Assembly (NCBI GenBank): GCA_964344235.1
Contig: CAYFMJ010000003.1
Location: forward strand, 16,054 to 80,053
DNA length: 64,000 bases
Reading direction: 5' to 3'
DNA from: an uncultured Methanosarcinales archaeon
GTDB lineage: Archaea > Nanobdellota > Nanobdellia > Woesearchaeales > GW2011-AR9
A program made the position numbers and the translations under genes. The notes beneath the pieces are model-generated. The model ran no database searches. It was not told where the DNA came from and worked only from the letters and a program-made list of their open reading frames with translations. Below, piece by piece: positions 7,127 through 60,697 of the stretch (the first letter of the stretch is position 1; each line of letters starts with the position of its first letter).

Positions 7127-7132
7127 TAAGAA

Positions 7133-44592: not shown

Positions 44593-44856
44593 ATGGTTAA
44601 TAGTTCCGATATCCCTCGAAACGCAATACATGCCTCTGCTAGTCCGGGAGATGTGGTTGAAGTTCTCTTTCAAACACCTGATGGAATGGAGAGGTTTTAT
44701 TTCACAGAAGAAGGTTTAGTCAACCCTTTTGGAGCAGCATATCCTCACACTGGAACTCCAACCATTTCATTAGATGGAGTTGTTGTAGAAGGTGATGGCA
44801 GGGAATATCATTCCGGGGAGGAAGGATTTCACTTGCAGAGTATATCGCTTATATAA
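44593..44856 (+). CDS. Hypothetical protein ending 2 nt before the island's left repeat cluster
   Basis: ORF only. Composition resembles the fragmentary ORF at the island's right flank. Confidence 0.35.
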   Translation: MVNSSDIPRNAIHASASPGDVVEVLFQTPDGMERFYFTEEGLVNPFGAAYPHTGTPTISLDGVVVEGDGREYHSGEEGFHLQSISLI

Positions 44857-44977
44857 ATTTTTCGTTACTTATGAGTGAAAAAAGTCACGAATCCCCAAAA
44901 ATTCGTTTTTCATTACTTTAAGTGGTTACAGAGTGCCGAGATTTTCGTTACTTTTTTGCCAAAAAGAGGTGAAAAAG

Positions 44978-45298
44978 ATGACTGACACGACCAAATTGTA
45001 CCATGAATTGCTAGAAAAGAGCGTATATGCGGTTCTCAGGGGAAACCTGCAGCGAAATGGCCTTCTGATGGAAGAAACAGATCAGACTGTCAAAATTATA
45101 GGGAATTCTAGAATTTCTATTATCCCCAAAGCGGAGATAATTGTTATAGACCTAGATAAGGAAGGGGCAGATATTACGCCAGAACAACAGACAGAGCTGC
45201 AGAAGATCAAAGCCTATCTTGAAGAGAAAAATAGGGCTACCAGGGAGAAAATAAAGGGGGATAATGAACCCCAATTTTCACTTAATAACTCAAGTTAA
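44978..45298 (+). CDS. Hypothetical protein, first gene of the island
   Basis: ATG at 44978 follows GAGGTG. The track start (GTG at 44933) lies inside the boundary motif. Confidence 0.4.
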   Translation: MTDTTKLYHELLEKSVYAVLRGNLQRNGLLMEETDQTVKIIGNSRISIIPKAEIIVIDLDKEGADITPEQQTELQKIKAYLEEKNRATREKIKGDNEPQFSLNNSS

Positions 45299-45517
45299 TA
45301 CAATTTCAGGACTAAACGGTATGTAGTCGGATTTTGCGGTTACATATCAAAAAGAGGTGGTAAAGGAGGCTTCAACAATAGATTTGAGGCTAAAAAAAAG
45401 AGCATTTTGTGGAGCATTTTGCTCAACTTGTCTTGAAAATTAACAAAAATTCACAACACCATCAAGGCTCGCTGAGAAATATGAAGTTGAGTTATTAACA
45501 AAAAAGAGGTATCAAAT

Positions 45518-45820
45518 GTGGGTAAACCAAAGAAGTATGATGTAAGAAGTATCAATTTTGGCGAAGTAGGCCATCCAGCCAGGATATTAGTAGATAAATT
45601 CGTTAGTTTGCATGGAAAAACTGCACTTTCTCGCTTAATTAGACGTCTAGTGATGATCTATCTTATGGAAAAGCCAGAGTATAGAGATTGGAAGGCTCAG
45701 AAGCTCATCTATGAGAGAAAAGAGCTAGGAAAGAAAGTTGCTCAGATCTTGGAAAGAAGGAGAAAGGTGGACGAAGAATTGAGAGACCTTGGAGTGAATC
45801 CAGATGAACTGATTTACTGA
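45518..45820 (+). CDS. Small basic protein, possible DNA-binding
   Basis: GTG start after GAGGT; Lys/Arg-rich helical C-terminus. Confidence 0.35.
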   Translation: MGKPKKYDVRSINFGEVGHPARILVDKFVSLHGKTALSRLIRRLVMIYLMEKPEYRDWKAQKLIYERKELGKKVAQILERRRKVDEELRDLGVNPDELIY

Positions 45821-45982
45821 AAATGAAGGGGCTAAAACGATTCAAATGTGGGCACTGCTCAAGGAAATACACGGGCCTGAATAAATGGATCTTCAAGCAT
45901 TTGGAGAAAAAACATCCTGACAAACCACCAAGGGCGCGTGCAATTGACCTAAAATTTAGGTATCATCACGGAGGATAGAACA

Positions 45983-46390
45983 ATGAAGGAAGATGAAAAA
46001 ATAAAACAAGATTTCAACCAGAGAGTTCCAATCAATTTAGTTGACGAGCTTCTAATACTACCAGGAGACATGAAGTCTAAAGAGAATAAGATTCAAGCTA
46101 TAAAATTCAAAATAGCAGACCTTAAGAAAAAAGTTGAGAAGTGGGAGTTAAATGAACTAGAGAAAATTTATCTTCAGGTTGGCAGTGATGGAAAAAGAGT
46201 TTATTCTAATGAGAAGCTAAGGGAAGCAGAACTAGAGCGAAGAAAAGATGCTTCTCCTGAGATTAAGAAATTATACGCAGAATTGTATGAGAATGAAATC
46301 AAGCTAGAATCTGAATTAATCGAATTTCGATATATGGATCGCAGATATAGTGCACTTAGAAACATTGCTAACATATTTTGTACTAGATAA
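45983..46390 (+). CDS. Coiled-coil protein
   Basis: Heptad-rich K/E sequence. Confidence 0.35.
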   Translation: MKEDEKIKQDFNQRVPINLVDELLILPGDMKSKENKIQAIKFKIADLKKKVEKWELNELEKIYLQVGSDGKRVYSNEKLREAELERRKDASPEIKKLYAELYENEIKLESELIEFRYMDRRYSALRNIANIFCTR

Positions 46391-46392
46391 AA

Positions 46393-47748
46393 ATGGAAAA
46401 CGAATCAATCAAAAGCATGAGGATAGAGAAGTTGAGCATAAGTTCTATTACTCCGGCCAATTATAATCCTAGAAAGATAAGTCCAGATGAACTTAACAAG
46501 TTAAGGAATAGCATACAGAAGTTTGGTTATGTTGAACCTATAATCTACAATAAGAGAACAGGGAAAATAGTTGGGGGACATCAAAGATTCAAGATACTTA
46601 AAGAAATTCTTGCTCCTGAAGAGCTCGTAGATGTTGTTATTGTTGATTTGGATGAGAATGAAGAAAAAACCCTTAACGTTGCGCTGAATAGAATTGGTGG
46701 AGAGTGGGATGACAATAAGTTATCAGAATTACTAAAGAATATTCACGATAATGAAGAAGACCTGCTAGAATTTACTGGGTTTAATGATAAAGAAATTGAA
46801 CTCCTTTTGAATCAATTAGAATACGAAGACATATCCAAGGAAGAGAGATTTTTTTCCATCAATAGGGAAGACATCAAAGAATCAAAAATAAAGACAGGGG
46901 ACATAGTTGTTCTAAATGATAAGCACAAAATAATTTGCGGCGATTCTTCTGATTCTTCAATATTCAAAAAATTATTTGTTAATAGAAAATTTGATTTAAT
47001 GGTGACTAGTCCGCCATATAATGTAAACATTGCTTATGGTAAATATAAAGATAACAAGAAATGGAATGAATACATTGACTTGATAAAAAAGATTTTTGAT
47101 AATTCTAAACAATTCTTGAACGATTACAGATTTTTATGCATCAATATTGGTGATATGACGAAGAACAATTTATCTGCTCATTATAGCATAATATTGGAGA
47201 ATCTTGATTACAAATACTGTAAAACAATCTATTGGGTCAAACCTTCTGCCTCAGCAAGAGGAACAAATGTATTGAAAACTCCCTATCCGCGATGGTATAG
47301 GCCAAAGGTCAACACGGAAACAATCTTGGTTTATGAATTTGGAGAAAAAGAACCAGAGATAGCTAATGTGATGTTGACATACTCAAAAGGAGAACTAACT
47401 TCTAAAACTAAGCCGGACAAAGGAGAAGCACAGGTAATTAGCAAGAGGTTGCTGAAACAATTTTTGACTAATGTTTGGTACATGCAACCTGAGACTACGC
47501 TCAGCAGAGATCATCCCGCACCTTATCCTGTTCAGTTACCTCTTAATTGTCTTAAGTTTTTCAGTTTGGAGAACGAAAGGGTATTTGATCCTTTTACTGG
47601 AAGCGGAACTAGTTTGCTAGCAGCCGATCTTCTTGGACGGGAATTTTACGGTATAGAGTTAGATCCAAAATATGTTCAGTTGGTGATTGAGCGATATAAG
47701 AGGTATAAACCTGAATCAAAGATTGAGATAATAAAAAATGAAAATTGA
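46393..47748 (+). CDS. ParB-like nuclease domain fused to a beta-class N6-adenine/N4-cytosine DNA methyltransferase
   Basis: N-terminal ParB box (IVGGHQRF); MTase motif IV SPPY before motif I FDPFTGSGTS (beta-class order). Confidence 0.75.
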   Translation: MENESIKSMRIEKLSISSITPANYNPRKISPDELNKLRNSIQKFGYVEPIIYNKRTGKIVGGHQRFKILKEILAPEELVDVVIVDLDENEEKTLNVALNRIGGEWDDNKLSELLKNIHDNEEDLLEFTGFNDKEIELLLNQLEYEDISKEERFFSINREDIKESKIKTGDIVVLNDKHKIICGDSSDSSIFKKLFVNRKFDLMVTSPPYNVNIAYGKYKDNKKWNEYIDLIKKIFDNSKQFLNDYRFLCINIGDMTKNNLSAHYSIILENLDYKYCKTIYWVKPSASARGTNVLKTPYPRWYRPKVNTETILVYEFGEKEPEIANVMLTYSKGELTSKTKPDKGEAQVISKRLLKQFLTNVWYMQPETTLSRDHPAPYPVQLPLNCLKFFSLENERVFDPFTGSGTSLLAADLLGREFYGIELDPKYVQLVIERYKRYKPESKIEIIKNEN

Positions 47749-48481
47749 AGAAGGAGATTTAGTTTATTTGGATAAGCACAGGCTTTTATGTGGAAATAGT
47801 TTGAAGTATTCAGTATTAAAAAAGTTACTTGGTGACAAAAAAGTTTCTATGTTGTTTACGGATCCACCTTATAATATAAGTTATGTTCCGGAAGATAGAC
47901 CAATTGGGGGCCGGAGAAGGTCAAAAAATAAACTTGGCGGGATTATTGGTGATACTAACTTTGATTTTAATAAATTTTTCAAGATTCTTGAGATTGGTTT
48001 TATAAAAGGAGCCATCTACGTTTGTGGGAGCACAAAGAACTACTGCGATGTTTACAAATGGATGACTAATTTCTTTGACAGAGAACCGATTGTAATTGTT
48101 TGGAACAAGAATAACTACAGCATTGGAAGAAGAGATTATCATAGACAACACGAATTTCTATTTTACTCTTGGTTTAAAGAAAAGGTTTGGAATGGTGACA
48201 AGGAAAGAAATCAGTCTGATGTTTGGAATGTTAAAAGAGTTCCATCAACAAAATACATTCATCCTACTCAGAAACCAGTTATCTTAGTTAAGAAAGCTAT
48301 TTTGAACAGCAGCAACAAAGGGGAGATTGTTCTAGATTTATTTGGCGGTAGCGGAAGCACTTTGATAGCAGCTGAATCGTCTGGAAGGATATGTTATACT
48401 GTCGAATTGGATCCTCATTATTGCGAGAAGATGGTAGAGCGATGGGAAGCATTTACTGGAAAAAAAGCGGTTAAGGTCTGA
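47738..48481 (+). CDS. Beta-class N6-adenine/N4-cytosine DNA methyltransferase (second, tandem copy)
   Basis: Motif IV DPPY (LFTDPPYNI) then motif I DLFGGSGST. Its N-terminus parallels the MTase half of the preceding gene. Confidence 0.75.
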   Translation: MKIEEGDLVYLDKHRLLCGNSLKYSVLKKLLGDKKVSMLFTDPPYNISYVPEDRPIGGRRRSKNKLGGIIGDTNFDFNKFFKILEIGFIKGAIYVCGSTKNYCDVYKWMTNFFDREPIVIVWNKNNYSIGRRDYHRQHEFLFYSWFKEKVWNGDKERNQSDVWNVKRVPSTKYIHPTQKPVILVKKAILNSSNKGEIVLDLFGGSGSTLIAAESSGRICYTVELDPHYCEKMVERWEAFTGKKAVKV

Positions 48482-48483
48482 AA

Positions 48484-48816
48484 ATGATTGAATCTTATTT
48501 GAGAAAGCAAGAGAAGTGGGAGGAAACATCCACTGTTGAAGGGATGGATGCTTTAGAAGGAGAAACTATCACAAAAATTATTCCCTTAGATAAAGACAAG
48601 TATATGATTTTAATGAAAAGTGGGGCTAGTTGCGTTGTTCACACAGCTGGATCATTTACGATTTATACAAAAGAAAAGACAACTAAGATACTGCAAGAAG
48701 TAACTGCCAAAAGTAAGAATTTCAGCATAATTCATTCAAGGGCTAAACTAGCTTTAGATCAGTTGGCACAAGAAAACCAACAGAAGAACGAACAGAATAA
48801 AACGGGGGCTGAATAA
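48484..48816 (+). CDS. Hypothetical protein
   Basis: ORF with tight spacing. Confidence 0.4.
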   Translation: MIESYLRKQEKWEETSTVEGMDALEGETITKIIPLDKDKYMILMKSGASCVVHTAGSFTIYTKEKTTKILQEVTAKSKNFSIIHSRAKLALDQLAQENQQKNEQNKTGAE

Positions 48817-48819
48817 AAG

Positions 48820-51792
48820 ATGGGTGTTTTTAGAGGAGTTAAATATGAGCTTTCGGATGAGGACAGAGTACTTGGCGGAAAGAGTAGAAGCCCAGCAAAA
48901 ATAGCAGCTGCTAAAGTCAATGCTTTAAAGCATGGAAAATCATCTAAGGACCCCACAATAAAAGAAGCAATTACTCCTACATCTAAAGAGAAAGCACTAG
49001 GAATTACGACTTCTGATAAAATCAAGCAGCTTAAGAGATTAAACCCTTTATTTGCAAGTGAAAATAGATTCAATTATTTATATGGGGTTCAGGAGTTCTT
49101 AGGGGAATTACTAGTTTCTGCATTGAGAAAGAAAAAGGAAGGTAAGTCAACAGATTATGAATATAGGCAACTTACTAGATTGAGTTTAGAGTTGTTTGAT
49201 AGATTCTATGGCAAGCCAGATACTATTGTGAATGTACAGCAAAATTTGGAAGTTACGGAAAGTGTTTTACTTACTCCTACGGCTGCACCTGTAGCAGCAA
49301 AAGGATTAATCTACTTTGACAGCACAGCCAATAAGATCAAAGTTTCGGAAGATGGAGCTACGTTTGTAGATCTTGGTGGAGATGTTACAGAAGTAATTGC
49401 TGGTTCTGGATTGACGGGCGGAGGAACTGGTGGAAGTATTACTCTTGATATAGGTTCAAGTACTGGGATAATAGTTAATGCTAATGATATTGCCGTTGAT
49501 GTTGGTACAGGACCAAACCAAATTGTCCAGTTAGATGGGACTTCCAAACTTCCCGCAGTGGATGGAAGTCAATTAACAAACTTACCTTCAACGCCAGGGG
49601 AAACAACAACTGGCGTTAATAGAGAACTTAAGCAACAAATTGAGGTAGTAGAATTATTAGAGGTTAGTAGTTTAACATCTTTAGTTGGTGTTAGTGAAGA
49701 TATAATTGTTGAAACATTCTCTGACGCTGATGGATTTAACAATTTAGTTAATGTTAGTAATACGGATGCTACTCATGATTTGCCTAGCAAAAGATACAAA
49801 GCAGAATTTGTTGCTGGCGGTGGTGGTTTAATCATTGATGATTTTGACAGAGCCGATAGTGCTACCGTAGGAAACGGCTGGACTGAAGTTGAAACAACAG
49901 GAAGTACATGGTCAATAGTAAGTAACAGAGTTAAATGTGATTATGAAGGAAGCAGTGATCCAAATATTCATAAAAATATTGGAAATCAGCCAGCATTTGA
50001 TATCAAGGTTAAGTGGGAATCTACAAATGTTAATATAACAAGGCCCTCTTTAGCGGTAAATGGTGATGGAATCGCACCACAAAATGGTTTATCGATGAGG
50101 GCTACTTCTAGTAGTGGTTTTGGAATTACAAGAAATGGAAGTGTACTTGCTTCTACATCTTTCACTTTCTTAGACAACACTGAGTATTTCTATAGACTAC
50201 AGTGGAACGGCTCTACTTTGAAAGGAAAAGTATGGAAAGCAACAGATGCAGAACCTGGAAGTTTTCAACTAAGTACAAGCACCACTACGGTTACGGACAA
50301 TGAAGTTACTTTATCCTGTATAGCAAATGCAAGTGGTTCTGAGGATGTGTTCTTTGAAGATTTACAATTCGTAGGAGAAACAATAGAAACGATTGATGAT
50401 TTTAATAGAGCAAACTCTGCTACTGTCGGCAATGGATGGACAGAGGATGAAGGTTTTGGGACATGGCAAATTCTTTCAAATAAAGTAAGAGGAGAAAGGA
50501 CATCGGATGGGAAAGTGACTATGTTTAAAACACTGGGTAATAAAAGTAGTATGATTCTTAAATCAAAGGTTAATCGTACAACGACAGTCGCTACTCTCAA
50601 TTTCAGAATGGGATTTAATTCTACTTCCGGAGATGTTAATGCAAGTGGATTAACTCTCCTTGTTGAAGATAGTGGGTCTATTTTAAGTCTATTAAGAGAA
50701 GGTGTAAGTTTAGCTAGTACCACTTTCACAGTTGATGAGAGTACAGATTATTTTATGCAATTATCTTGGGACGGTTCAACGTTCAAAGGAAAAATCTGGA
50801 AAACTTCTGAAAGCGAGCCATCTGGTTACCAACTCTCCGCAAGTACTACAAATTCAACTGGAGATAAAATTGGATTCACTATCAGTGGTGGTGGACCTGC
50901 AACTGGAACAATTGATTGGGATGATGTGGAGATTCCTGCCAATACTGGACTTGCCGCAACCATAGATGACTTTAACAGGGCCAATTCAACAACAATTGGA
51001 AATGGATGGACAGAAGATGTGGGAAACTGGGAAATTTCTGGTAATGAACTAAAGGGGCCAGTTGATAACAGCAATCCGCGAATTACTAAAGACATAGGAA
51101 ATAGAGGGACATTTAACGTAAAAGCAAAGATTAGAAGAGAAGATACTAGTTTTAGATTTAGCATGGAGATCAACAATACAACTCCTAATTTATCTACTGG
51201 AATGAAAATTGCATATGATGATAGTACTTTTAGCATTGGTAGAGCCGCTACAGGACTTGCATCTACACCTCTTTCTTTTCCAGCAAACACAGACCATTTT
51301 ATGAGATTGCAGTTTGATGGAACTGATTTGAAAGGAACCCTCTGGGACGCTTCCGGAGCTGAACCAAGTCCTCAACTTTCTGCAACTACTACAAACACAT
51401 CTGGGACAGGTATCTTACTTCGTAATGATAAAGCTGGAGGAGGCATTGGTCTATCACAGTTTTGGGATGAAATAATCGATGAGAGTATTACTGGCACTGG
51501 ACCGGGGATAACAGAAAGAAAAGTAGAATTAGATTTACCAACTATAAGCGGAACAGTCACTGATACTCAACTTGCTTCCCGATTTAATTTGGAAACTGGA
51601 AATGAAATTAAGTATGAATTGGAAGATGCAAGTGCTAACAAAGATACCGACTTAGCATTTGATACCAAGAATACTCTCACAAATCTTGTATCAAACCCAA
51701 CAAAGTTAAGGATATTGTTAAAACGAGGAACAGGTGGTTCAGTTGACGAACCAAATGTTAAATCAATAGCAATGAGATTATTCAAATCATAA
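48820..51792 (+). CDS. Large tail-fibre-like repeat protein (990 aa)
   Basis: The segment GSGLTGGGTGGSITLDIG...IVQLDGTSKLPAVDGSQLTNLPS resembles the phage tail-fibre / chlorovirus glycoprotein repeat. It is followed by three ~200-aa tandem repeats (IDDF[DN]RA[DN]S.T[VI]GNGWTE... G[ST].[LF]KGK[VI]W...EP...LS.ST). Confidence 0.6.
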   Translation: MGVFRGVKYELSDEDRVLGGKSRSPAKIAAAKVNALKHGKSSKDPTIKEAITPTSKEKALGITTSDKIKQLKRLNPLFASENRFNYLYGVQEFLGELLVSALRKKKEGKSTDYEYRQLTRLSLELFDRFYGKPDTIVNVQQNLEVTESVLLTPTAAPVAAKGLIYFDSTANKIKVSEDGATFVDLGGDVTEVIAGSGLTGGGTGGSITLDIGSSTGIIVNANDIAVDVGTGPNQIVQLDGTSKLPAVDGSQLTNLPSTPGETTTGVNRELKQQIEVVELLEVSSLTSLVGVSEDIIVETFSDADGFNNLVNVSNTDATHDLPSKRYKAEFVAGGGGLIIDDFDRADSATVGNGWTEVETTGSTWSIVSNRVKCDYEGSSDPNIHKNIGNQPAFDIKVKWESTNVNITRPSLAVNGDGIAPQNGLSMRATSSSGFGITRNGSVLASTSFTFLDNTEYFYRLQWNGSTLKGKVWKATDAEPGSFQLSTSTTTVTDNEVTLSCIANASGSEDVFFEDLQFVGETIETIDDFNRANSATVGNGWTEDEGFGTWQILSNKVRGERTSDGKVTMFKTLGNKSSMILKSKVNRTTTVATLNFRMGFNSTSGDVNASGLTLLVEDSGSILSLLREGVSLASTTFTVDESTDYFMQLSWDGSTFKGKIWKTSESEPSGYQLSASTTNSTGDKIGFTISGGGPATGTIDWDDVEIPANTGLAATIDDFNRANSTTIGNGWTEDVGNWEISGNELKGPVDNSNPRITKDIGNRGTFNVKAKIRREDTSFRFSMEINNTTPNLSTGMKIAYDDSTFSIGRAATGLASTPLSFPANTDHFMRLQFDGTDLKGTLWDASGAEPSPQLSATTTNTSGTGILLRNDKAGGGIGLSQFWDEIIDESITGTGPGITERKVELDLPTISGTVTDTQLASRFNLETGNEIKYELEDASANKDTDLAFDTKNTLTNLVSNPTKLRILLKRGTGGSVDEPNVKSIAMRLFKS

Positions 51793-51807
51793 TGGAGGTA
51801 GATAATA

Positions 51808-52086
51808 ATGGCAGATAGATGGTTTAGAGTACCACAAATTGGAGCTGGAACGACAGCTGATCCATTTAGACCTGAAACAAATGGATTGAATCAATGGGCT
51901 AGTGCTGGACAATACGGAGACAACGACTTTCTCGTACGAGTTTATGGGACCACGGCAGAACTTGACGCTTTAGCACTAGTGACTGGAGTAACTGAAGTGA
52001 CAGCAACATTTGATACTGAATACAATACTCTATGGACTACAAGTTTAGGCAAACCCGACATTGAGGCAAAAGTTTTTGCTGCTTAA
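51808..52086 (+). CDS. Hypothetical protein
   Basis: ORF 16 nt after the big gene. Confidence 0.4.
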   Translation: MADRWFRVPQIGAGTTADPFRPETNGLNQWASAGQYGDNDFLVRVYGTTAELDALALVTGVTEVTATFDTEYNTLWTTSLGKPDIEAKVFAA

Positions 52087-52191
52087 GAATGGATCTGTTC
52101 AAATGGTTACAAGAAATAAAGCGGAACACATACTTTCATTTGAAAGAACTAATCGAGAAACTCCACAAAAAATACTTCCAAGAAGTATGGA

Positions 52192-52491
52192 TTGAAGTTG
52201 GACACAATGGTAACAGATACTGGAAAAATAAACGGTAATGTCATCAGAATGGCTGAATTTAAAGGAGAAGTTCTTGCTACTTTGAGGTATCTTAAGGAAC
52301 AGCAACGCGAACATAGAGATGAAGTAAAAACAGGATTTAAAGAACAAAGCGAGGATATTAAGAAAATTTCACGAAACTTGGAAAAGCATCTTAAAAAGTC
52401 AGCTATTCAGAAATGGGTAACTGGTTCAATAGTAGTATGGTTAAGTGCCCTTACTGGTGTTCTTGTTAAAATATTTGTACTTGGAGGTTGA
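52192..52491 (+). CDS. Small protein with a C-terminal TM helix (holin-like topology)
   Basis: Charged N-terminus and a hydrophobic C-terminus. An alternative 50-aa ORF at 52089-52238 overlaps. Confidence 0.3.
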   Translation: MKLDTMVTDTGKINGNVIRMAEFKGEVLATLRYLKEQQREHRDEVKTGFKEQSEDIKKISRNLEKHLKKSAIQKWVTGSIVVWLSALTGVLVKIFVLGG

Positions 52492-52493
52492 AA

Positions 52494-52661
52494 ATGAAAA
52501 AAGACTGGTGGAAATCACGGATGATTTGGATTAATGTTCTAGTTACAGTTAGTGGTATTGCAACTGCTCTTGCAGATCATTTGACAGCAGGAGGAGCATT
52601 GACGGGAATAGGAGTTGTTAATATTGTATTAAGAGTCCTTACAAAACAACCAGTGAAGTAA
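52494..52661 (+). CDS. Small 2-TM membrane protein (55 aa)
   Basis: Manual translation MKKDWWKSRMIWINVLVTVSGIATALADHLTAGGALTGIGVVNIVLRVLTKQPVK. Confidence 0.3.
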   Translation: MKKDWWKSRMIWINVLVTVSGIATALADHLTAGGALTGIGVVNIVLRVLTKQPVK

Positions 52662-52768
52662 TTATTTTTATAAATCTCTTTTCACACAGAAGCCTATACC
52701 ACCTCTTTTTCCCTATTTGGAGTCGAATCCCTACTCCATCAATCTGGCGAGGGAAAGTAGCGCCAGAT

Positions 52769-53224
52769 TTAGGGTTTTTTTAATCGTTCTCCCACATCCT
52801 TCCTTAACGTAGAAACATACAATTTCAATTGCACTTCAACTTCTCGCCATTCTTTATCTGTGATTGACTTTCCTTCATAATGTGTTCTGTTTCTCATAAA
52901 ACGGACTTTCTCAAAGAAATTCCAATCTAATTCTAGTTCAGGAAACTTAACACAGATATATGCAAAACATCCCTGATGGTTACTACATTTGACTTTTTGC
53001 AGGCGAAGCAGAATGTCACACAATTCCCTTAGTGAATCATAATAAAGAAGAAAAATTACACGCCAGTTAATGACTTTCTTAGTAATAAGGGTTTCTGCAA
53101 ACTGTACATTATCAGCAGCAATATCGTACATTCTTTGAAGAGCAAGTTCATCTATATCTTTTTCTCTATACTCTCCTGCTACTGTTACTTTATCATAAAT
53201 TTCTTCAGCTGTCTTTTCAGGCAT
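52769..53224 (-). CDS. HEPN-domain protein (HepT-like toxin)
   Basis: RNRTHYEG is an Rx4-6H-type motif near the C-terminus of a ~150-aa helical protein. Overlaps the MNT gene by 8 nt. Confidence 0.55.
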   Translation of the reverse strand: MPEKTAEEIYDKVTVAGEYREKDIDELALQRMYDIAADNVQFAETLITKKVINWRVIFLLYYDSLRELCDILLRLQKVKCSNHQGCFAYICVKFPELELDWNFFEKVRFMRNRTHYEGKSITDKEWREVEVQLKLYVSTLRKDVGERLKKP

Positions 53225-53759
53225 GAATGCTCACCGTAAATGGTTCTATTTTTCCTTTAACATGTATTCCTGCAAGGATATTAGGTATAACATTCTCAAT
53301 CCTTTTTAATTTTTGCGGGTCTTCGTATTCAAAAAGTTGAATTTCCCTCTTAAAAATGCGTTCAAACTTTCCTTGTTCAAATTCATCAGCATTACCATAG
53401 ATAAATAGATCAATATCACTCTCATAATCCCAATCAGCTCTAGCAAAACTGCCAAAAATAATGACTGTTTTGGCCTTGGGTAAGGAACTGAGGTGTTCTA
53501 AAAATCCTGTCTTTTCAAATTGCTGGAAAGCATAGAGCCTTTTCTCCATCTTGAATTTTACATTTGTGTAGTTAGCAATATAATATGGCATTTTGCCTTT
53601 AGGTCTAAATTTTTTTATGAGCTCTTCCTTAGTTAATTTTTTAAGCCATTTATTGGTGCTAGTTCTACTTAATCCAGACTTCTTTACAAGGTCGTCAAAG
53701 TGCCAGTGCTTCGTTGAATAATTGAAGAATAGCTCTTTAATATTCTCTTTTTGTCTCAT
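53217..53759 (-). CDS. Minimal nucleotidyltransferase (MntA-like) with an N-terminal HTH
   Basis: GSFARADWDYESDIDLFI = GS.AR.....SDIDL signature. Confidence 0.65.
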   Translation of the reverse strand: MRQKENIKELFFNYSTKHWHFDDLVKKSGLSRTSTNKWLKKLTKEELIKKFRPKGKMPYYIANYTNVKFKMEKRLYAFQQFEKTGFLEHLSSLPKAKTVIIFGSFARADWDYESDIDLFIYGNADEFEQGKFERIFKREIQLFEYEDPQKLKRIENVIPNILAGIHVKGKIEPFTVSIHA

Positions 53760-53873
53760 ATTTTAGTACATATATGTGTACTACTTTATAAAGTTTTTGT
53801 TCCTAAATCGCTGTAGTTGTACCTCAGAATAAGTAACAAGCTTTTTAAATGAGCTAAATTATAACAAAATAAA

Positions 53874-55937
53874 ATGAAGTTTACAAGGAATTTATCGGAA
53901 TTGGACAAGGATGATGTCTCATTAGCGGGAGGAAAAGGGGCATCATTAGGAGAAATGATTAAAGCAGGTATCCCTGTGCCAGGCGGATTTGTTGTTCTCT
54001 CTACGGCATTTGAGGATTTTATCGAAAAAACAGATTTAAACGTAGAAATTGACTCTATTTTACATTCTGTTGATCTTAAGAAAATGCATACCATTGAAGA
54101 GGCATCAGAAAAAATTAATGCTCTTATTCTTAATGCAAAGATTCCAAATGAGATAGTGAGAGAAATAAAAGAATTATTCAAAAAAATGGGAGCCTCATTT
54201 GTTGCAGTTCGTTCTAGTGCTACTGCTGAAGACAGCTCAACAGCTGCATGGGCTGGTCAATTAGAGACCTATCTTAATACTACTGAAGAAAATCTTATTG
54301 AGAATATTAAAAAGTGTTGGGCTTCACTGTTTACACCAAGAGCAATATTCTATCGCTTCGAAAAAGACCTGCATAAGCAAAGAATTTCTGTTGCTGTTGT
54401 TGTGCAGAAAATGATTCAAAGTGATGTTTCGGGAATAGCATTCTCGGTTCACCCCGTTACTGAAGACAGGAATCAACTTATTATAGAAGCAGGATATGGC
54501 TTAGGTGAAGCAATTGTTTCTGGTTCTATAACTCCTGATAGTTATGTAGCCGAAAAAGAACCACTGAAGATTCTTGATAAAAACGTGTATGCTCAAGAAA
54601 AATCACTTGTCAAATCAGAAGAAGGTGGTACAGAATGGAAAGAAGTTGCTCAGGCAGATGTTGAAAAGCAAAAATTAACAGATAATCAGGTACTTGAGCT
54701 TACAAAAATCATAATCAACATTGAGGATCATTATGGATTTCCTGTTGATGTTGAATGGGCTTTAGAAAATGGAAAATTCTACCTAACGCAATCTAGACCA
54801 ATTACCACACTTTCAGCGGATACAGGATCTAAGGAAAAATTTTCAGGAGTTCCCGATATTGCAAACGATGATCTTCAGTATCTTCTTGAGCGAAATGAAC
54901 TTTACTTTGTATCTTCTATTTTAGCAGGCGGGTTTTGTGGTGAAGAAAATGTAAAGAAAATATTTGACATTTCTCCTCCAGCGGGAATAGTTCAACGCAA
55001 TGATGACTTTTTCTTAATTAAATCAACATTGATACCATTTACAAAAAAACTGAAAGAGAAAATAAAACAAGAGGGTTATGTAAGAAGAATTATTGAAGAA
55101 TGTCATCAAGCTGGAGCGCAATTACAGGCAGAACTCAAAGAGATTGGAGAGAGGGCTGCAAAAGTAAGAACAAAAGAAGAGATAGCAAGGTTATTAGAAG
55201 AATTTTTTGAAAAAGCAAAAACCTATTGTTCTTTTTATCCAATTGCCCTTTTTGAGAAACCAATGACTGAATTTGCAGAAAAAATTGCTAAGAAATACAC
55301 TAAGGATGACAATGAGATGCAAGAGATTTTTAACTTAATAACAACTCCAAGTCATACTACAGAAGCTGATAAAGAAAGAGATGATTTTCTAAAGTTATGT
55401 GCTCTTGCAGACAAAGGTGAAGATATAAGTCACTTGGCAGAAGAACATGCAAGAAAATATGGTTGGATAGCAATTAGATATCTCAGAGGAAATTTATGGA
55501 AGAAAGAAGATATCCTAAAAAGAGTTGCAGAAGCTGACCTTACCCTTGCAGAACAAGAACTCAAATCAAGGAAAAAACATAGAAAAGGAGTAGAAGAAAA
55601 GTTGCAAGAATTCATTAAAAAAGTGTCAAATGAAGATAAAGAAAGAATTCAACAAATAAGAGAAATTGTGTACTTACGAACACAACGGGCTGAGTATTTA
55701 GACATGTCAACACAGTATATAATTGGATTTCTACATAGGGTTAATGACGAGTTGGGTTTAGACTATGAGGACATGCTTCAATGTAATCTGCGTGAAATTG
55801 TCGATATGCTAACCACTGGTATTAATTTAAAAGAAGAAATTGCAGCTAGGCATAAGGAGCTGCTTGTTTTTCATAATGCTGGAGGGGTTTGTCTTTCTGG
55901 AGAAGATGCTGAGGAGTATATGGAGCTTCTGGATTAA
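53874..55937 (+). CDS. PEP synthase / pyruvate-phosphate dikinase N-terminal (ATP-grasp, PPDK_N) domain protein with a long all-helical C-terminal region; no phospho-His or PEP-utilising domains recognised
   Basis: The N-terminal ~310 aa match PPDK_N blocks (LAGGKGASLGEM, VAVRSSATAEDS, FPVDVEWAL). The C-terminal ~370 aa are K/E-rich helices. Confidence 0.6.
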   Translation: MKFTRNLSELDKDDVSLAGGKGASLGEMIKAGIPVPGGFVVLSTAFEDFIEKTDLNVEIDSILHSVDLKKMHTIEEASEKINALILNAKIPNEIVREIKELFKKMGASFVAVRSSATAEDSSTAAWAGQLETYLNTTEENLIENIKKCWASLFTPRAIFYRFEKDLHKQRISVAVVVQKMIQSDVSGIAFSVHPVTEDRNQLIIEAGYGLGEAIVSGSITPDSYVAEKEPLKILDKNVYAQEKSLVKSEEGGTEWKEVAQADVEKQKLTDNQVLELTKIIINIEDHYGFPVDVEWALENGKFYLTQSRPITTLSADTGSKEKFSGVPDIANDDLQYLLERNELYFVSSILAGGFCGEENVKKIFDISPPAGIVQRNDDFFLIKSTLIPFTKKLKEKIKQEGYVRRIIEECHQAGAQLQAELKEIGERAAKVRTKEEIARLLEEFFEKAKTYCSFYPIALFEKPMTEFAEKIAKKYTKDDNEMQEIFNLITTPSHTTEADKERDDFLKLCALADKGEDISHLAEEHARKYGWIAIRYLRGNLWKKEDILKRVAEADLTLAEQELKSRKKHRKGVEEKLQEFIKKVSNEDKERIQQIREIVYLRTQRAEYLDMSTQYIIGFLHRVNDELGLDYEDMLQCNLREIVDMLTTGINLKEEIAARHKELLVFHNAGGVCLSGEDAEEYMELLD

Positions 55938-56130
55938 GACATTTCACTAACCTTTTCTTTCTTAGTTCTCCAAGTGTTACAGATACTTTTACTAATTGTA
56001 TCTTAAGAGATTTACTGATTTCTGTAGGCGTTATGGGCTCTTCGTATTCATCCAAAATATTCAGCACTTTCTTCCTGCGATAACCTCTTCGTAGCCACGC
56101 CACCAAACGGTAATCAATAGATAAGTCCAT
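55846..56130 (-). CDS. Winged-helix DNA-binding protein
   Basis: The PITPTEISKSLKIQLVKVSVTLGELRKKRLVK helix-turn-helix pattern. Its 3' end converges on and overlaps the preceding gene by ~90 nt. Confidence 0.35.
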   Translation of the reverse strand: MDLSIDYRLVAWLRRGYRRKKVLNILDEYEEPITPTEISKSLKIQLVKVSVTLGELRKKRLVKCLNPEAPYTPQHLLQKDKPLQHYEKQAAPYA

Positions 56131-56212
56131 AGAAAGAACAGGTATCCTATCGGATAAAAGACAGGTTTACCGTTAGATATAACTATTTAACAAGGGCAAC
56201 TTATTTAAAGAA

Positions 56213-56473
56213 ATGAGAAAACAAAAACTAACGAGGTGGTTATTTATGGAAGAAAATAAATTTATGAATAAAGAGGATCTAAGCAAGCTAGCTAAAGAAG
56301 TTGTGAAAATTTTGAAGAATGACGAAGAGTATGCTCAATTTGTTGGTAGCGAAGTTCAAGATTATCTTGAAAAAACTAAAATACGAGAACATATTAATGA
56401 AATTGATGAACTAAAAAAAGAATTTAAACAATTATTATCTGAAGTAAAAGGCAAAGCTAGACAAGAACCATGA
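56213..56473 (+). CDS. Hypothetical small protein
   Basis: ORF only. Confidence 0.3.
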   Translation: MRKQKLTRWLFMEENKFMNKEDLSKLAKEVVKILKNDEEYAQFVGSEVQDYLEKTKIREHINEIDELKKEFKQLLSEVKGKARQEP

Positions 56474-56998
56474 TTTTTACTTCTTTCTTTTCATATACTG
56501 ATTAATGAATCTTTCTAGTACTGTCCAGACTTTTTCTCTTCTTTTCTTGACTTCATGAGTAAAATCAATCCATTTATCTCTATTCCCTCGGAAGGACAAT
56601 GAATCATCCTCGGACGAACCCTTTTTTTTTGCCATGTGGTACAATGCTATTGTCTTACTATATAAATATTTACATTAATTTAGGGCAATCTTTATATATC
56701 TCCTATGTCCCACAGTGACAAAGTGCTACAAATAAAAAAGTACGTAAATGGAAGAAATTTAGGCTTATTTATCCCAAAAAAGAGAAATATAGTATTATTC
56801 TCTCAGAAAGGGATAAGGATAAGTGAAAATTGTACCATGTTAGTGGTGAAAAAGGCAACACAATATCAACCATGCCGTAATCCTAGTTTAAAGGGGGCGG
56901 TATGTGATAGCAAGAGCCCCAACATCTGTTTTTACTTGTTGGGTAGTTAAGAGTTGGAGCTGTGCCTGCTGTCTCCAAAAAAAATGGAGGTGGTAGGT

Positions 56999-57850
56999 AT
57001 GCTACCAAATAGAATAAGGTATGTGAAAATGGGTAAATCAACCCTAGCGAAAAAAATAACGGAAGAGGAATTGCAGACATTCTTTGACGCAATTCCAAGA
57101 GTGACAAAAAGGAGCACGTATTGGCTCACATTGTTTATGACTCTAAGCGATGCTGGGCTTAGAGCAGGTGAGGCAGTGAGATTGAAAATAAATGATATCC
57201 ATCAGGAGAAGAATATCATTACAGTACACCAGCAAAAGAATGGCGTAGATCATGAAGATACGCCTTTTACTCAAAGGTTGAGAGAACAACTCAACAAATT
57301 TATTGCCTTATATCATAAACAAATCAAAGAGAGTGGGGACTATATGTTCTTCACTCAATATACAGTTAGGGGTCAAGATGTTATAGGCGAGGGTGAGCAC
57401 ATTAAGACTTCTAATTTACGAAAGATGTTCAATAAAGTAAGGGCTGAAGCAGCCACTGTCATGCCAAGCATAGGAAGAGCTTATACAAAGAGGACAACAA
57501 AAGACGTTACCAATGGTAATGCTCCATGTAAGGCACTTGGCAGGCCTCTGATGGTAATTACGCCCCACACTTTAAGACATCGCTTTATACAGCGAATAGC
57601 GGACCAGGAGGGACTCTTTAAGGCCCAACAGTGCGCTAGACACCTACATTTTTCTTCTACCTTAGTCTATGCAAAAAAGAGCATGAAAGCAAAAGTTGAA
57701 GCAATAAACAACACGTTTGATTCCGAGAAGAAGGACCAAGCAGAAGAGATTAATGAATTAAAAGAACAGGTTGCAAGCCTTACAAAAATGCTTCAGGATA
57801 ATATGAATATTCTGAAGTTCATTAAGGGGGTGAATGGAGGAAATGAATAA
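56999..57850 (+). CDS. int: Tyrosine recombinase / phage-type integrase
   Basis: Catalytic residues in GLRAGEAV (R), HTLRHRFI (H..R) and LVYAKKS (Y). ATG at 56999 after GGAGGTGG; the track start at 56954 is TTG. Confidence 0.75.
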   Translation: MLPNRIRYVKMGKSTLAKKITEEELQTFFDAIPRVTKRSTYWLTLFMTLSDAGLRAGEAVRLKINDIHQEKNIITVHQQKNGVDHEDTPFTQRLREQLNKFIALYHKQIKESGDYMFFTQYTVRGQDVIGEGEHIKTSNLRKMFNKVRAEAATVMPSIGRAYTKRTTKDVTNGNAPCKALGRPLMVITPHTLRHRFIQRIADQEGLFKAQQCARHLHFSSTLVYAKKSMKAKVEAINNTFDSEKKDQAEEINELKEQVASLTKMLQDNMNILKFIKGVNGGNE

Positions 57851-58118
57851 GCAAGAAACCAAATATCTCTTAGAAGTTTACAAAGATTGTCTAAAACTTG
57901 AAAGGCAGAACCAATTAACAGAGCATGGTGCTGGAATGGGCGAATTAGCTTCTATTCTTCTCAAGAAGCACAGAGAATTCAAGCATCTGAAAGAAAGGGA
58001 GAAATTGAAATGCCTATCTTGTAAGAAGGCTTATTGGGTATCTAATGAAGAGAGATGCGTTTTTTGCGATTCAAAAAAGGTAGTGAAGGCAAATGCCCCT
58101 CTACCAGTTAAACACTAA
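57834..58118 (+). CDS. Small zinc-ribbon protein (CLSCKK...CVFCDSKK)
   Basis: C-x2-C...C-x2-C motif. Confidence 0.4.
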   Translation: MEEMNKQETKYLLEVYKDCLKLERQNQLTEHGAGMGELASILLKKHREFKHLKEREKLKCLSCKKAYWVSNEERCVFCDSKKVVKANAPLPVKH

Positions 58119-58134
58119 CTTGGAGGTAATACCA

Positions 58135-58440
58135 ATGAAAGAAAACAAAAAACTAGCCGTAGGCATAAAAAAGGACTTTACTAAGAAGAAATCCGGAAGA
58201 AAAAGAGTATCACACAGGGAAGTGTGTTATAGAATTCTAAAGGAGAGAGGTAAGCCAATGCATTACAAAAAAATAACGGAAGAAGTTCTAAAGGAATGTA
58301 AGTCAGTAGGTAAGACTCCGCAAAATACAATGTATGCTAGAATGTTAACAGACAAGAAAAGATTCAAACTTCTTGGCAAGGGAAAGTTTGCTCTCTTAGA
58401 ATGGGAAAACAAAGCGAAGGTGATTAAGAATGCCAAATGA
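58135..58440 (+). CDS. Winged-helix (Mrr_N/HARE-HTH-like) small DNA-binding protein
   Basis: VSHREVCYRILKERGKPMHYKKITEEVLK pattern; ATG at 58135 after GGAGGT. Confidence 0.35.
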   Translation: MKENKKLAVGIKKDFTKKKSGRKRVSHREVCYRILKERGKPMHYKKITEEVLKECKSVGKTPQNTMYARMLTDKKRFKLLGKGKFALLEWENKAKVIKNAK

Positions 58441-58786
58441 AATTGGAATTGTATCTAAAGTCAAACCACGGGACAAAACTTACAGTGTTGCAGTAAACAA
58501 ACAATGGTTTGGTGGTTTCGGTAAGTGTCCTGTACTTGAAGGAGAAACAGTGAAAATTGAATGGAAGCAGAAAGGTGACTTTAAGAATATATTAAAAATA
58601 GAGAAAGTAGAACCTGTATTTCAAGATGAGCTACAACAAGCTCCTGAAATTGATTCTAGGATCAATGATATAAGGCTTCAGGTTTGTGTAAAAGCTGCAG
58701 CCGGAGTGTTTGCAGGAACAAAAATCAACCCATCAGAAATTGCTGAGTATTCAAGGAACTTGTTTAAGGAATTGTGGGGGAAGTAA
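58430..58786 (+). CDS. Hypothetical protein
   Basis: ORF overlapping its neighbours by a few nt. Confidence 0.35.
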   Translation: MPNEIGIVSKVKPRDKTYSVAVNKQWFGGFGKCPVLEGETVKIEWKQKGDFKNILKIEKVEPVFQDELQQAPEIDSRINDIRLQVCVKAAAGVFAGTKINPSEIAEYSRNLFKELWGK

Positions 58787-58787
58787 T

Positions 58788-58970
58788 ATGACTAAAGCAA
58801 CAGAAGAGCTAACAAATGAGAAACAAGACAGCATAAAATTAAGCAAGAATTCAAAGGGTTATGTCTGGGAAATCAAACGATATTACGATTTCTCAAAGAC
58901 AAAGCCAGAAGATGTAATTAAACAGCTTGGAGAGATAGATAAAGAGCTTAAAGAGAAATTTGGAGGTTGA
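58788..58970 (+). CDS. Hypothetical small protein
   Basis: ATG immediately follows the previous stop. Confidence 0.3.
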   Translation: MTKATEELTNEKQDSIKLSKNSKGYVWEIKRYYDFSKTKPEDVIKQLGEIDKELKEKFGG

Positions 58971-58976
58971 ATTATC

Positions 58977-59234
58977 ATGAGTGAATGGTTTAAGAAAAAG
59001 TTTCCTGGGCTTACTAGTGAAGTTGGAGAAGTGACTCAGAGAGAGTGGAAGGAGGCAAAGAAAGCTTACTTAGAATGGAAGAAACAGGAAATGTTGTCTC
59101 CGGAGAACATTGAAAAACATTGTCTTGATAAAGAGCTGGTAAGGAAAGCAGTGGGAAAATTAATTTTATTGAATCAAGAGGATCCAAAATTAAGAAAGTG
59201 GTACAATGTTATCACAAAAGAACTGGGCCTTTGA
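58977..59234 (+). CDS. Hypothetical small protein
   Basis: ORF only. Confidence 0.3.
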   Translation: MSEWFKKKFPGLTSEVGEVTQREWKEAKKAYLEWKKQEMLSPENIEKHCLDKELVRKAVGKLILLNQEDPKLRKWYNVITKELGL

Positions 59235-59403
59235 GAGCAAAAATGCGGAAACCGAAAAGCATAAATAGATGTACTACTTTACTCATTCTAGACATGCACT
59301 TAAAATTAAGTGTGTGTAAAAAGTAACGAAACACCACAAAAAAAGTAACGAAAACTGAAAAATGCCAAGCGTAACGGAAATGTGGGAACTCGTGAATTCT
59401 TAA

Positions 59404-59997
59404 GCAACGGAAATAGGCAATTATCGTGACTTTTTGAGTTTACCAATAATTCAAGGAGAACTTCGTATAAATATTGATGGGCGTTTTTTAGCAAGTCCCG
59501 ACAATGATTTCTTAGCTGTAATAAGGGATGATGATTAGAGAGTTGGTTGCTTATATGGCCAGGGAAGTAGGTTTTTTCGAGCTGGAGATTTTGGAAACCA
59601 AGAAGCTGCAAGAAGATATTTACAGGAGTTAGAACCCGAAGTCGCCAGGTTTTTTGGTTATGGAAGAAGGTTACCATGGCAAGTTAAAAAATTGAGAGAT
59701 TTGTCTCAAGGAAAGGATCTGCCACATGACCCCAAGATGGATGGTGGGAGTGATGTTGTTAGAAGAGAAACTATCGATACACTACTTCTAACCACAATTA
59801 TTTTTGAGACGGAGCCAGGGAAGAGTGCTTTTGCTACAGTTTATGCAACTCCCGCACCTCTTGAGCAAGGAGTAGTTGACAGAGGGTGTTTATATCTTGA
59901 CGTAGCACAGATATCTGACCCGGGAGGCATGCACATGCCTGCAGCTTCTGTATTTGAACGAAAGGCCAGGAGAAGGTGTATAAGAGAAGTGTGGTAA
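59404..59997 (+). pseudogene. Gene remnant at the island's right flank: one frame is open from 59404 to 59997 but is interrupted by an in-frame TAG at 59536-59538 and has no ATG (the track ORF 59692-59997 begins at TTG)
   Basis: Manual frame tracing. Composition resembles the left-flank ORF 44593-44856. Confidence 0.3.
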
Positions 59998-60037
59998 TGA
60001 GCATACATTTTTAAATCTTGAGAATCTCTTTAGAATC

Positions 60038-60697
60038 ATGCCAAAAAAGAGGTCTAAAGAAACTATTGTGGTGATGAGTGCCCACACAGATGATTTTGTA
60101 ATAGGGGCAGGTGGAACTATTCTAAATTATTTGAAAGAGGGGAAAGAAGTGATTGCCGTTGTTTTCTCATTAGGAGAAAAGTCGCATCCCTGGTTAAAAG
60201 ATGGTGTGATTAAAGATATTCGAAAGAAGGAAACGTTTGATGCGTTAAATATTATGCCCTGTAAGATTCGTTTTTTAGATTTAGGTGATCAAGCTATTTA
60301 CAAAGATTTTACAAAGCAGAAAAAAGTAAGAGAAAAATTGCAGAAAGTATTTGATAAAAAACCAACGAAAATTTTTACACATAGTAGTGAAGATCCCCAT
60401 CCAGATCACCGGGCGGTACACAAGATAACATTAGAGATGTATGAGAAGCTTAATGGGAAAAAAAAGCCAGAGGTGTATATTTACTCTGTTTGGAATCCAG
60501 TATCGTTTAAAACACAATTTCCATCGTTATATGTTAATGTGACGAAGACGTTTTTCAAGAAATTAAAAGCGTTAAAGACGTTTGAAAGTCAGAAATTTGC
60601 AGTTGTTTACCCAACGTTCTTACTGATGTGGCGGGCGTTTAAGGATGGGTTCAAAATCCGAACGTGGTTTGGGGAGCATTTTTTTAGGATAAAATGA
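60038..60697 (+). CDS. PIG-L/LmbE-family N-acetylglucosaminyl deacetylase
   Basis: SAHTDDFVIGAGGT (H.DD...G.GG) and HPDH zinc-site motifs. Confidence 0.7.
   Translation: MPKKRSKETIVVMSAHTDDFVIGAGGTILNYLKEGKEVIAVVFSLGEKSHPWLKDGVIKDIRKKETFDALNIMPCKIRFLDLGDQAIYKDFTKQKKVREKLQKVFDKKPTKIFTHSSEDPHPDHRAVHKITLEMYEKLNGKKKPEVYIYSVWNPVSFKTQFPSLYVNVTKTFFKKLKALKTFESQKFAVVYPTFLLMWRAFKDGFKIRTWFGEHFFRIK

Follow-up and report, generated by a model that had tools for sequence, protein, structure and literature searches.

A probable gutted provirus of a tailed virus between thrS and a PIG-L/LmbE gene of a Woesearchaeota-like archaeon

The window analyzed here is a stretch of 64,000 nucleotides (64 kb) from a Woesearchaeota-like archaeon, and the element under study is an island at positions 44,859-59,436, a 14.6 kb insertion between two housekeeping genes. 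On its left lies thrS (42315-44483, minus strand) and on its right a PIG-L/LmbE gene (60038-60697) followed by a GT4 gene and SUF genes; these positions agree with the original prediction, an annotation made from the letters alone, which had described an integrase-bearing island between these same neighbors. The ThrRS encoded beside the island has an archaeal editing domain, and its best matches (64-69% identical) come from archaeal metagenome-assembled genomes (MAGs) including Candidatus Woesearchaeota, so that the earlier guess at a DPANN-type host was right. Only two relatives, L004 (ThrRS 69% identical) and L006 (64%), keep the neighborhood, and in both of them thrS is the divergent neighbor of a gene array encoding LmbE, GT4 and an 81-aa protein. 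The gap between thrS and this array is 631 bp in L004, 1213 bp in L006 and 15.5 kb in the window, a presence/absence comparison, if between distant relatives, that favors insertion. At the level of gene order the island is thus confirmed as an insertion relative to related genomes. Each of the two short gaps holds one unrelated open reading frame (ORF), a ~426-aa ORF in L006 (8650-9930) and a 135-aa ORF in L004 (9511-9918), and because these ORFs differ the thrS-LmbE intergenic site appears to be variable across the lineage. The composition of the island is mildly but consistently deviant, with tetranucleotide z values of +0.3 to +3.2 over its whole length and a GC content of 0.32-0.39 vs ~0.38 for the host; a map of composition, which had been proposed as a check, therefore shows deviation throughout, but of modest size only.

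Small pieces of DNA of less obvious origin adjoin the island on both sides. To the left, between thrS and the island end, is an 87-aa ORF (44593-44856, +), and the right flank piece (59440-60037) contains a 123-aa ORF on the minus strand and a 98-101-aa ORF on the plus strand (59692-59997). These small flank ORFs have no homologues on either side, and those at 44593-44856 and 59692-59997 show no nucleotide or protein homology to the ORFs in the gaps of L004 and L006. The flank pieces may be host DNA, the product of older insertions or a part of the element.

The limits drawn in the original prediction match the positions of two arrays of a 9-10 nt motif, which lie at exactly these places. The left-end array (44859-44957) occupies the space between the 87-aa flank ORF, whose stop it follows directly, and o2, which starts ~20 nt further on, and is made up of TTTTCGTTACTT (44859-44870), the inverted copy AAAAAGTCACGA (44879-44890) and TTTTCGTTACTTTTTT (44942-44957). 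The right-end array, conserved and non-coding (59258-59436), carries direct copies of the degenerate motif GYAACGRAA at 59323, 59345, 59371 and 59404 together with an inverted copy at 59424-59435, and its copies are oriented opposite to those of the left end. The exact 10-mer TTCGTTACTT has four copies in the 64 kb, on the plus strand at 44861 and 44944 and on the minus strand at 59321 and 59343, and is confined to the two island ends. GYAACGRAA occurs at 12 sites in the 64 kb, where 1.7 are expected, and half of these (6/12) fall in the two end zones (post-hoc binomial P ~3e-12). A 16-nt perfect inverted repeat pairs 44942-44957 with 59339-59354. The arrays may thus serve in recombination and not as operators. 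A 6-nt core, ATAAAT, common to the left junction of the window and to a junction in contig L072 (described below), was considered and set aside, as it could not be confirmed at the right junction of the window. An 18-mer from the right-end array used in a metagenome scan gave nine matches, all of them by chance. Between o23 and the right-end array there is also a sub-threshold match to the Rfam DUF805b RNA (59243-59269, +; 27.6 bits vs a gathering score of 35.6), which is probably a chance hairpin.

Close to the right-end array lies a tyrosine recombinase gene (56999-57850, +), as originally predicted, with a Pfam Phage_integrase match of E 3e-16. The encoded protein of 283 aa (273 aa if translated from the ATG at 57029) consists of a catalytic domain followed by a ~40-aa coiled coil. 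In alignment with the XerA of P. abyssi (4a8e) its residue 6 corresponds to residue 92, or to position 84 of the XerA model, and since the alignment starts only there, the enzyme has no N-terminal core-binding domain. The same alignment shows LRAGE, HTLRH and LVY, the catalytic motifs, to be retained. A word-indexed search of 5.8 billion proteins returned one relative only, P0122, which is 80% identical, equally short and has the same motifs. P0122 is encoded on L072, a contig of 1.7 kb from SRR22387952, where the integrase is followed directly on its 3' side by a 155-nt non-coding stretch that is 77% identical to window positions 59262-59415 and keeps four of four motif copies. The two integrase genes differ with a pN of 0.14 and a pS saturated at 0.755, values which indicate that the enzyme and the adjacent array are both constrained, and on this comparison of two sequences both are under purifying selection. 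Beyond the array L072 continues into unrelated sequence, the C-terminus of a PHP/PolX-like protein in a fragment 49% identical to a Woesearchaeota MAG gene; judged from these flanks, the integrase module occupies different loci in two Woesearchaeota-like genomes. The similarity between window and L072 ends at ~59418, which fixes the right boundary to within ~20 nt. Absent from L072 are the five small genes that in the window separate integrase and array (57834-59234), and in both places the integrase ORF is unsplit in the integrated state, which is not the SSV-type arrangement.

Upstream of the integrase the window encodes a divergent basic protein of 52 aa (56477-56635, minus strand), whose positional counterpart in L072 is a small divergent ORF of 45 aa (tblastx 32% identity over 34 aa). 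It is a candidate recombination directionality or regulatory factor. An 81-aa ORF between the two (56705-56950, +) stops 4 nt short of the TTG with which the long integrase ORF starts and was called in no assembly; it is probably a non-coding spacer, since the corresponding ~220 nt are absent from L072. Elsewhere in the window (2832-3647, minus strand) there is a full-length XerA/XerC-type tyrosine recombinase of 271 aa with its N-terminal SAM-like domain present, presumably the chromosome-dimer resolvase of the host and clearly distinct from the short island integrase.

The module resembles lambda-type integrase/att systems in that a tyrosine recombinase lies by a non-coding, multi-copy short motif with copies on both sides after integration, but the enzyme is without arm-binding and core-binding N-terminal domains, no core direct repeat is identifiable and the target is intergenic rather than a tRNA gene. 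In other respects it recalls the DNA invertases of the FimB/FimE type, as the enzyme is about one catalytic domain long, its candidate sites are in inverted orientation and it is likely to depend on accessory DNA-binding proteins. The island could be read as no longer mobile, a fixed chromosomal variable region of horizontally acquired genes whose recombinase would work on the inverted end motifs in the way of FimB, as an invertase or a regulator and not as an integrase. A catalytic-domain-only architecture is found in tyrosine invertases, the FimB-type model PRK09870 is matched weakly, the end motifs are inverted and not direct, and the thrS-LmbE gap is variable in the relatives too. A population survey of assembled contigs, which yielded 13 contigs of the same population from 8 samples, bears on this reading in two ways: excision products were not seen in it, as would be expected of a fixed region, but both junctions have a single orientation in all contigs. 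An invertible segment was therefore rejected for want of inverted junctions in these contigs. Furthermore, the PRK09870 match (E 1.6e-4) is far below the cutoff, the island integrase has an extra C-terminal coiled coil and sits in a 14.6 kb insertion, the related integrase and its array have other genomic surroundings, the genes are viral in origin, and an invertible segment of 14.5 kb would have no obvious purpose. We regard a fixed region of this kind as very unlikely.

Evidence for a viral origin comes from the left half of the island. A 451-aa fusion of ParB_N and N6/N4 DNA methyltransferase (MTase) domains (46393-47748, +; Pfam ParB_N E 5e-7 and N6_N4_Mtase E 8e-39, MTase_II in PADLOC) is followed by a second N6/N4 DNA MTase of 247 aa (47738-48481, +; Pfam E 6e-24, also found by PADLOC), the start of which overlaps the end of the first, and both genes were correctly named in the original prediction. 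Its description of them as orphan MTases typical of phages also holds, as 171 phage genomes encode full-length homologues of the ParB-MTase (~33% identity) and no restriction enzyme was detected among neighboring island ORFs in Pfam or PADLOC scans. The next gene, o8 (48484-48816, +; 110 aa), lies as in tailed-virus loci between the ParB/MTase genes and a gene in the position of the small terminase (TerS). In the window this latter gene is the beginning of a 990-aa ORF (48820-51792, +), in which an N-terminal domain, here called the N-domain, is fused in frame to a fiber-like remainder. The N-domain covers the first ~145 aa (48820-49260, +) and belongs to a family of proteins in the small-terminase position; a full HMMER search with residues 1-155 as the query gave 27 homologues, each a stand-alone protein of 165-205 aa, the best being 56% identical (E 1e-36). 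The copy in the window is without the last 25-45 residues of the family and continues in frame into the fiber motif.

The block of ParB/MTase, o8 and N-domain recurs in six independent virus-like loci, three of which have a large terminase (TerL) downstream, and the o8 homologue is always upstream of the N-domain homologue. Loci L095-L098 contain an MTase, a ParB-MTase, a 61-aa ORF, an o8 homologue with 51% identity and the N-domain; the ParB-MTase of L095 is 30% identical to that of the window and the gene order is the same. L099 has a ParB gene, an o8 homologue (48%), small ORFs and the N-domain, and the block neighbors also recur in L100, which is grouped with it (tblastn with o8 gave E 1e-26 to 3e-35 for L095-L099). 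In L093 (JGI 3300062818) the order is ParB, an o8-like gene (E 1e-6), the N-domain, nine small ORFs, TerL (phrog_2, E 3e-23) and portal/MuF, and in L094 it is an o8-like gene (E 9e-14), the N-domain, small ORFs and a TerL fragment; TerL stands 2.5-3.4 kb downstream of the N-domain homologue in these two. L101 (ERZ27247320) has ParB, a 56-aa ORF and the N-domain, which TerL then overlaps by 14 nt, and this TerL matches the large terminase of 2,245 phage genomes as well as PDB TerL structures. The window, with its order ParB-MTase, MTase, o8, N-domain, follows these virus-like loci, and the shared gene block supports a viral ancestry of the island at the level of sequence and gene order. The o8/N-domain genes form an unnamed, conserved family pair that accompanies ParB and TerL on tailed-virus contigs of widely differing GC content (0.30-0.46), and neither has a Pfam or PHROG family. 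Position, size and a helical prediction suggest that the N-domain could be a small terminase; its AlphaFold2 (AF2) model is all-helical and of low confidence (pLDDT 57), Foldseek returned no fold match for it, and a motif common to the N-domain and a phage ORF (GKPDT.N.Q) is weakly significant. In IMG/VR the ParB-MTase has a single match, on an ordinary tailed-phage contig, and no close relative of the N-domain, of the whole 990-aa protein, of the integrase or of the right-end DNA was found in that database.

The remainder of the 990-aa ORF (49261-51792, +) comprises a tail-fiber motif (aa ~160-270), three ConA-like lectin/carbohydrate-binding module (CBM) repeats of ~190 aa (aa ~337-900) and a C-terminal part of ~90 aa. 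A motif of tail-fiber type and three tandem repeats had been noticed originally, and both stand: residues 226-258 share 76-81% identity, over 31-33 aa, with proteins annotated as podovirus tail fibers, and the three copies are spaced by 558 and 570 nt. In a search with the whole protein, all database homologues matched aa 160-270 only, a widespread fiber motif. One repeat, modeled by AF2 (pLDDT 77.6, pTM 0.80), forms a ConA-like lectin/CBM66-type sandwich, and with this model Foldseek retrieved CBM66 and L-type lectins at a probability of 1.0 in addition to phage minor tail and DUF7257 proteins. The protein has no transmembrane (TM) helix and no signal peptide, and no N-terminal tail-attachment domain was identified in it. 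By its motif and modeled fold the remainder of the ORF qualifies as a tail fiber/receptor-binding-type protein. Where the 990-aa ORF stops and o10 starts, a 16-nt unit is repeated 1.9 times (51789-51820) across both.

Genes for virion assembly are conspicuous by their absence, as the original prediction had stated in saying that no capsid, portal or terminase is recognizable. No island ORF matched a terminase, portal or capsid family in Pfam or PHROGs, and the TerL, portal and head proteins of four viruses (L092, L093, L094 and L101) show no tblastn similarity anywhere in the window. We conclude that the island is probably a cryptic, gutted provirus of a tailed virus of the Caudoviricetes type, the morphogenesis module of which has been deleted. 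The provirus reading follows from the order of ParB/MTase, o8 and terS-position gene, which is the order found next to large terminases in tailed-virus contigs, and degradation is indicated because the window is without terminase, portal and capsid genes while its terS-position gene is fused in frame to a fiber gene. Of the options offered in the original prediction, a degraded provirus is therefore favored by the insertion synteny, the shared virus gene block and the lost virion genes, and the satellite and integrative-plasmid options, discussed below, retain a smaller share of support.

A sequence of events can be proposed for such a provirus. A temperate tailed virus would have integrated into the thrS/LmbE intergenic region through its own tyrosine recombinase, and a later single deletion, with one end point near the 3' end of the terS-like gene and the other within the fiber gene, would have removed the whole morphogenesis module and may have produced the fusion of N-domain and fiber. 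What would remain are early and accessory genes, the terS-like::fiber chimera, two small membrane proteins (o11 and o12) in the usual post-fiber position of lysis genes, cargo and the integration module. The integrase would act on the GYAACGRAA arrays that are now at both ends in inverted orientation, and it probably relies on small DNA-binding partners, such as the 52-aa divergent protein or the HARE-HTH protein described below, because it consists of a catalytic domain only. The purifying selection seen on the integrase and its array suggests that this module may have kept its function in an element that has lost the means of making virions. In a circular form the two arrays would be opposed on either side of the crossover point, and the genes from the integrase to o23 would join those from o2 onward in one co-directional array across the junction. 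A comparable arrangement is known from the temperate pleolipovirus SNJ2, in which circularization joins the end genes into a continuous one-strand array across the junction (PMC13107129). The likeness lies in the predicted joining of int, o19-o23 and o2-o5 and beyond into one array; unlike SNJ2, the island has no Rep-Arvir/DUF7845 and no pleolipovirus spike or membrane proteins, profile searches of the island found no SNJ2-type replication module, and its informative genes are of tailed-virus affinity. With defective tailed-virus (Caudoviricetes) proviruses the island shares integration between host genes, an integrase, a phage-type ParB-MTase, an orphan MTase, a terS-position gene, a tail-fiber-type protein, small membrane proteins after the fiber and moron-like cargo. 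It is unlike the usual members of that class in that the packaging, head and tail modules are wholly gone, the terS-like gene is fused to a fiber gene, the length does not exceed 14.6 kb, a Woesearchaeota-like DPANN archaeon is the host, and there is neither a tRNA target nor a detectable att direct repeat.

Several points weigh against a gutted provirus. All 13 same-population contigs are collinear with the integrated form, and none of them shows an empty site, a circular junction or an inversion. The synteny relatives are distant, with ThrRS identities of 64-69%, and their own thrS-LmbE gaps are unequal. No direct repeat of at least 11 nt connects the ends, although a core of 6-8 nt would escape this limit, and neither a tRNA target nor any Rfam family is present there. 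The assignment of the N-domain to TerS receives no support from Pfam, PHROGs, the AF2 model or the fold search, several small ORFs intervene between N-domain and TerL in L093 and L094, and the comparison contigs range in GC from 0.30 to 0.46. There is no second example of the N-domain::fiber architecture, which could possibly be a natural fusion rather than the product of a deletion. Finally, most of the small ORFs (50-135 aa) have no homologue in Pfam, PHROGs, NCBIfam, PADLOC or INPHARED.

The same loss of virion genes could be viewed differently, as the normal state of a satellite-like integrative element that, like PICI or P4, exploits a tailed virus of the same host as its helper, its terS-like domain redirecting packaging and its own fiber setting the host range. 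The size of 14.6 kb fits, and PICI, cfPICI and P4-like satellites of 10-15 kb likewise combine an integrase and regulators with a small-terminase-like function in the absence of a large terminase and of capsid genes. The undetected capsid genes, the regulators, the terS-position domain with no TerL, the purifying selection on integrase and adjacent site, and the related integrase module at another locus of another genome would all be accommodated. On the other hand, no primase, replicase or other replication gene was found in Pfam, PHROG and NCBIfam profile scans, and the element is without capsid-size redirection genes and a known helper virus; the truncation and fusion of the terS-like part give the impression of an accident and not of design; and classical satellites do not carry a fiber, as the island does. 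Neither an excised nor an over-represented form occurs among the 13 contigs, and a second member of the same content was not found. A satellite-like nature is on balance unlikely, and we are similarly doubtful of the stronger proposal that the element is still mobile, a satellite-like integrative element of Woesearchaeota moved by a new lineage of tyrosine integrases, which would be reduced to the catalytic domain and work, together with small accessory proteins, on inverted arrays of a 9-nt motif, and that a helper tailed virus would be exploited via the terS-like::fiber chimera. In the contig survey, two independent MEGAHIT contigs end inside motifs, L084 at 44871 in the first left copy and L001 at 59322 in the first right copy; these ends may reflect branching of the assembly graph at an alternative junction, or chance.

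The other island genes are for the most part small. At the left end are o2 (44978-45298, +; 106 aa), the first gene after the array, which is called in same-population contigs L083, L085 and L086 and has no significant Pfam or PHROG match; o3 (45518-45820, +; 100 aa), which has no significant family match and may be a small DNA-binding protein of ribbon-helix-helix (RHH)-like type, judging by its sequence; o4 (45823-45978, +; 51 aa), with a C2H2-type zinc-finger pattern CxxC...HxxxxH and a weak zf-C2H2 match (E 0.009-0.04); and o5 (45983-46390, +; 135 aa), charged, coiled-coil-like and with no matches. The 990-aa ORF is followed by o10 (51808-52086, +; 92 aa, no matches), o11 (52207-52491, +; 94 aa) and o12 (52494-52661, +; 55 aa). 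Small holin-like membrane proteins had been predicted here, and o11 fits in having a coiled coil and one clear C-terminal TM helix (aa 71-94), so that it may resemble XhlA or a holin accessory protein, whereas o12 has two short hydrophobic segments that are borderline, and the PHROG matches of both are weak (phrog_9415, E 1e-4, and phrog_29088, E 0.002). To the right of the winged-helix regulator described below is o17 (56246-56473, +; 75 aa), called in L001, L002 and L073 and with weak PHROG matches only. The integrase gene is overlapped at its end by o19 (57834-58118, +; 94 aa), a CxxC...CxxC zinc-ribbon protein with no family match, after which come o20 (58135-58440, +; 101 aa), a HARE-HTH DNA-binding protein (Pfam E 1e-11), and the tightly packed o21, o22 and o23 (58430-59234, +) of 118 aa, 60 aa (58788-58970) and 85 aa (58977-59234), which have no matches. 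Together with a winged-helix regulator of 94 aa (55846-56130, minus strand; weak MarR_2 and HTH_Crp_2 matches, and phrog_2440, a transcriptional regulator, at E 8e-4), o19 and o20 correspond to the zinc-ribbon and winged-helix mini-proteins originally described. Fifteen small ORFs, concatenated and compared with INPHARED, gave no match.

Among the larger genes in the middle of the island, a nucleotidyltransferase (NTase) of the MNT type (53217-53759, minus strand; 180 aa) is identified by NTP_transf_2 (E 1e-9) and Polbeta (E 2e-8), with a weak MarR-like match ahead of these (E 7.5e-4, below the Pfam cutoff), a weak MntA_antitoxin match and PADLOC PDC-M05A at E 2e-10. Its partner of 151 aa (52769-53224, minus strand), which overlaps the NTase gene by 8 nt, is HEPN-like by its position and an R..H motif only and has no HEPN match in Pfam or PDB, so that of the HEPN/MNT pair first proposed the NTase half stands and the HEPN half is at most putative. 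Beside the NTase gene, a protein of 687 aa (53874-55937, +) has an ATP-grasp PPDK_N domain at aa 1-320, of the phosphoenolpyruvate (PEP) synthase/rifampin phosphotransferase type (Pfam E 1e-100, with NCBIfam and PDB PEP synthase matches), and an uncharacterized C-terminal part of ~360 aa; as predicted, no other domain was found. PPDK_N is rare in phage genomes, and its status as a phage gene was rejected, as only a handful of dubious phage records carry it. The PPDK_N protein and the NTase pair are most simply taken as cargo, and the label of defense-like cargo given earlier applies to the NTase pair and the MTases, with nothing beyond these. Outside the island, a stretch of the window at ~3000-8000 is also compositionally deviant (GC 0.33, tetranucleotide z up to +2.7), contains by the Xer gene a winged-helix regulator, a methyltransferase-like protein, a membrane protein and small ORFs, and may be another acquired region.

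With so many ORFs lacking homologues, one may ask whether the island is instead an intact small non-tailed archaeal virus, spindle-shaped or pleomorphic, or an integrative plasmid, with capsid and replication proteins that are not recognizable. A length of ~15 kb, an integrase, mini-proteins of the C2H2, RHH and winged-helix types, and a large fiber by small hydrophobic proteins are reminiscent of fusellovirus and pleolipovirus layouts, and the virion would then have o12 and o11 in its membrane or capsid, with the 990-aa protein as a terminal fiber or spike. But the informative genes all point to tailed viruses, namely the ParB-o8-terS block by TerL, the podovirus fiber motif and the minor-tail-like lectin domains. 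The fiber has no signal peptide or membrane anchor, no archaeal virus genome in INPHARED was matched, the integrase gene is intact, unlike in SSV-type integration, and Rep and conjugation genes were not found. A non-tailed virus or plasmid is accordingly quite improbable, and a gutted tailed-virus provirus remains the reading that we prefer.

DPANN viruses have been reported as mostly lytic (PMC12647753), and PMC13573593 cites surveys of DPANN viruses and mobile genetic elements. A decayed prophage with orphan methylases and a fiber gene is a familiar kind of object. Less ordinary are its DPANN host, a domain-minimal orphan integrase under selection with conserved inverted arrays, and the terS-like::fiber chimera. 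The integrase is of interest in its own right, since it has no N-terminal DNA-binding domain and one detectable relative, yet is clearly under selection together with its adjacent site. The chimera would be an example of prophage decay making a new large ORF, one that automated annotation would call an adhesin. The ParB-o8-terS-position block and the GYAACGRAA end arrays provide handles for finding live relatives of the element. Integrated DPANN viruses are rarely documented, and if the island is the clear remnant that we take it to be, tailed temperate viruses have integrated into Woesearchaeota-like genomes.

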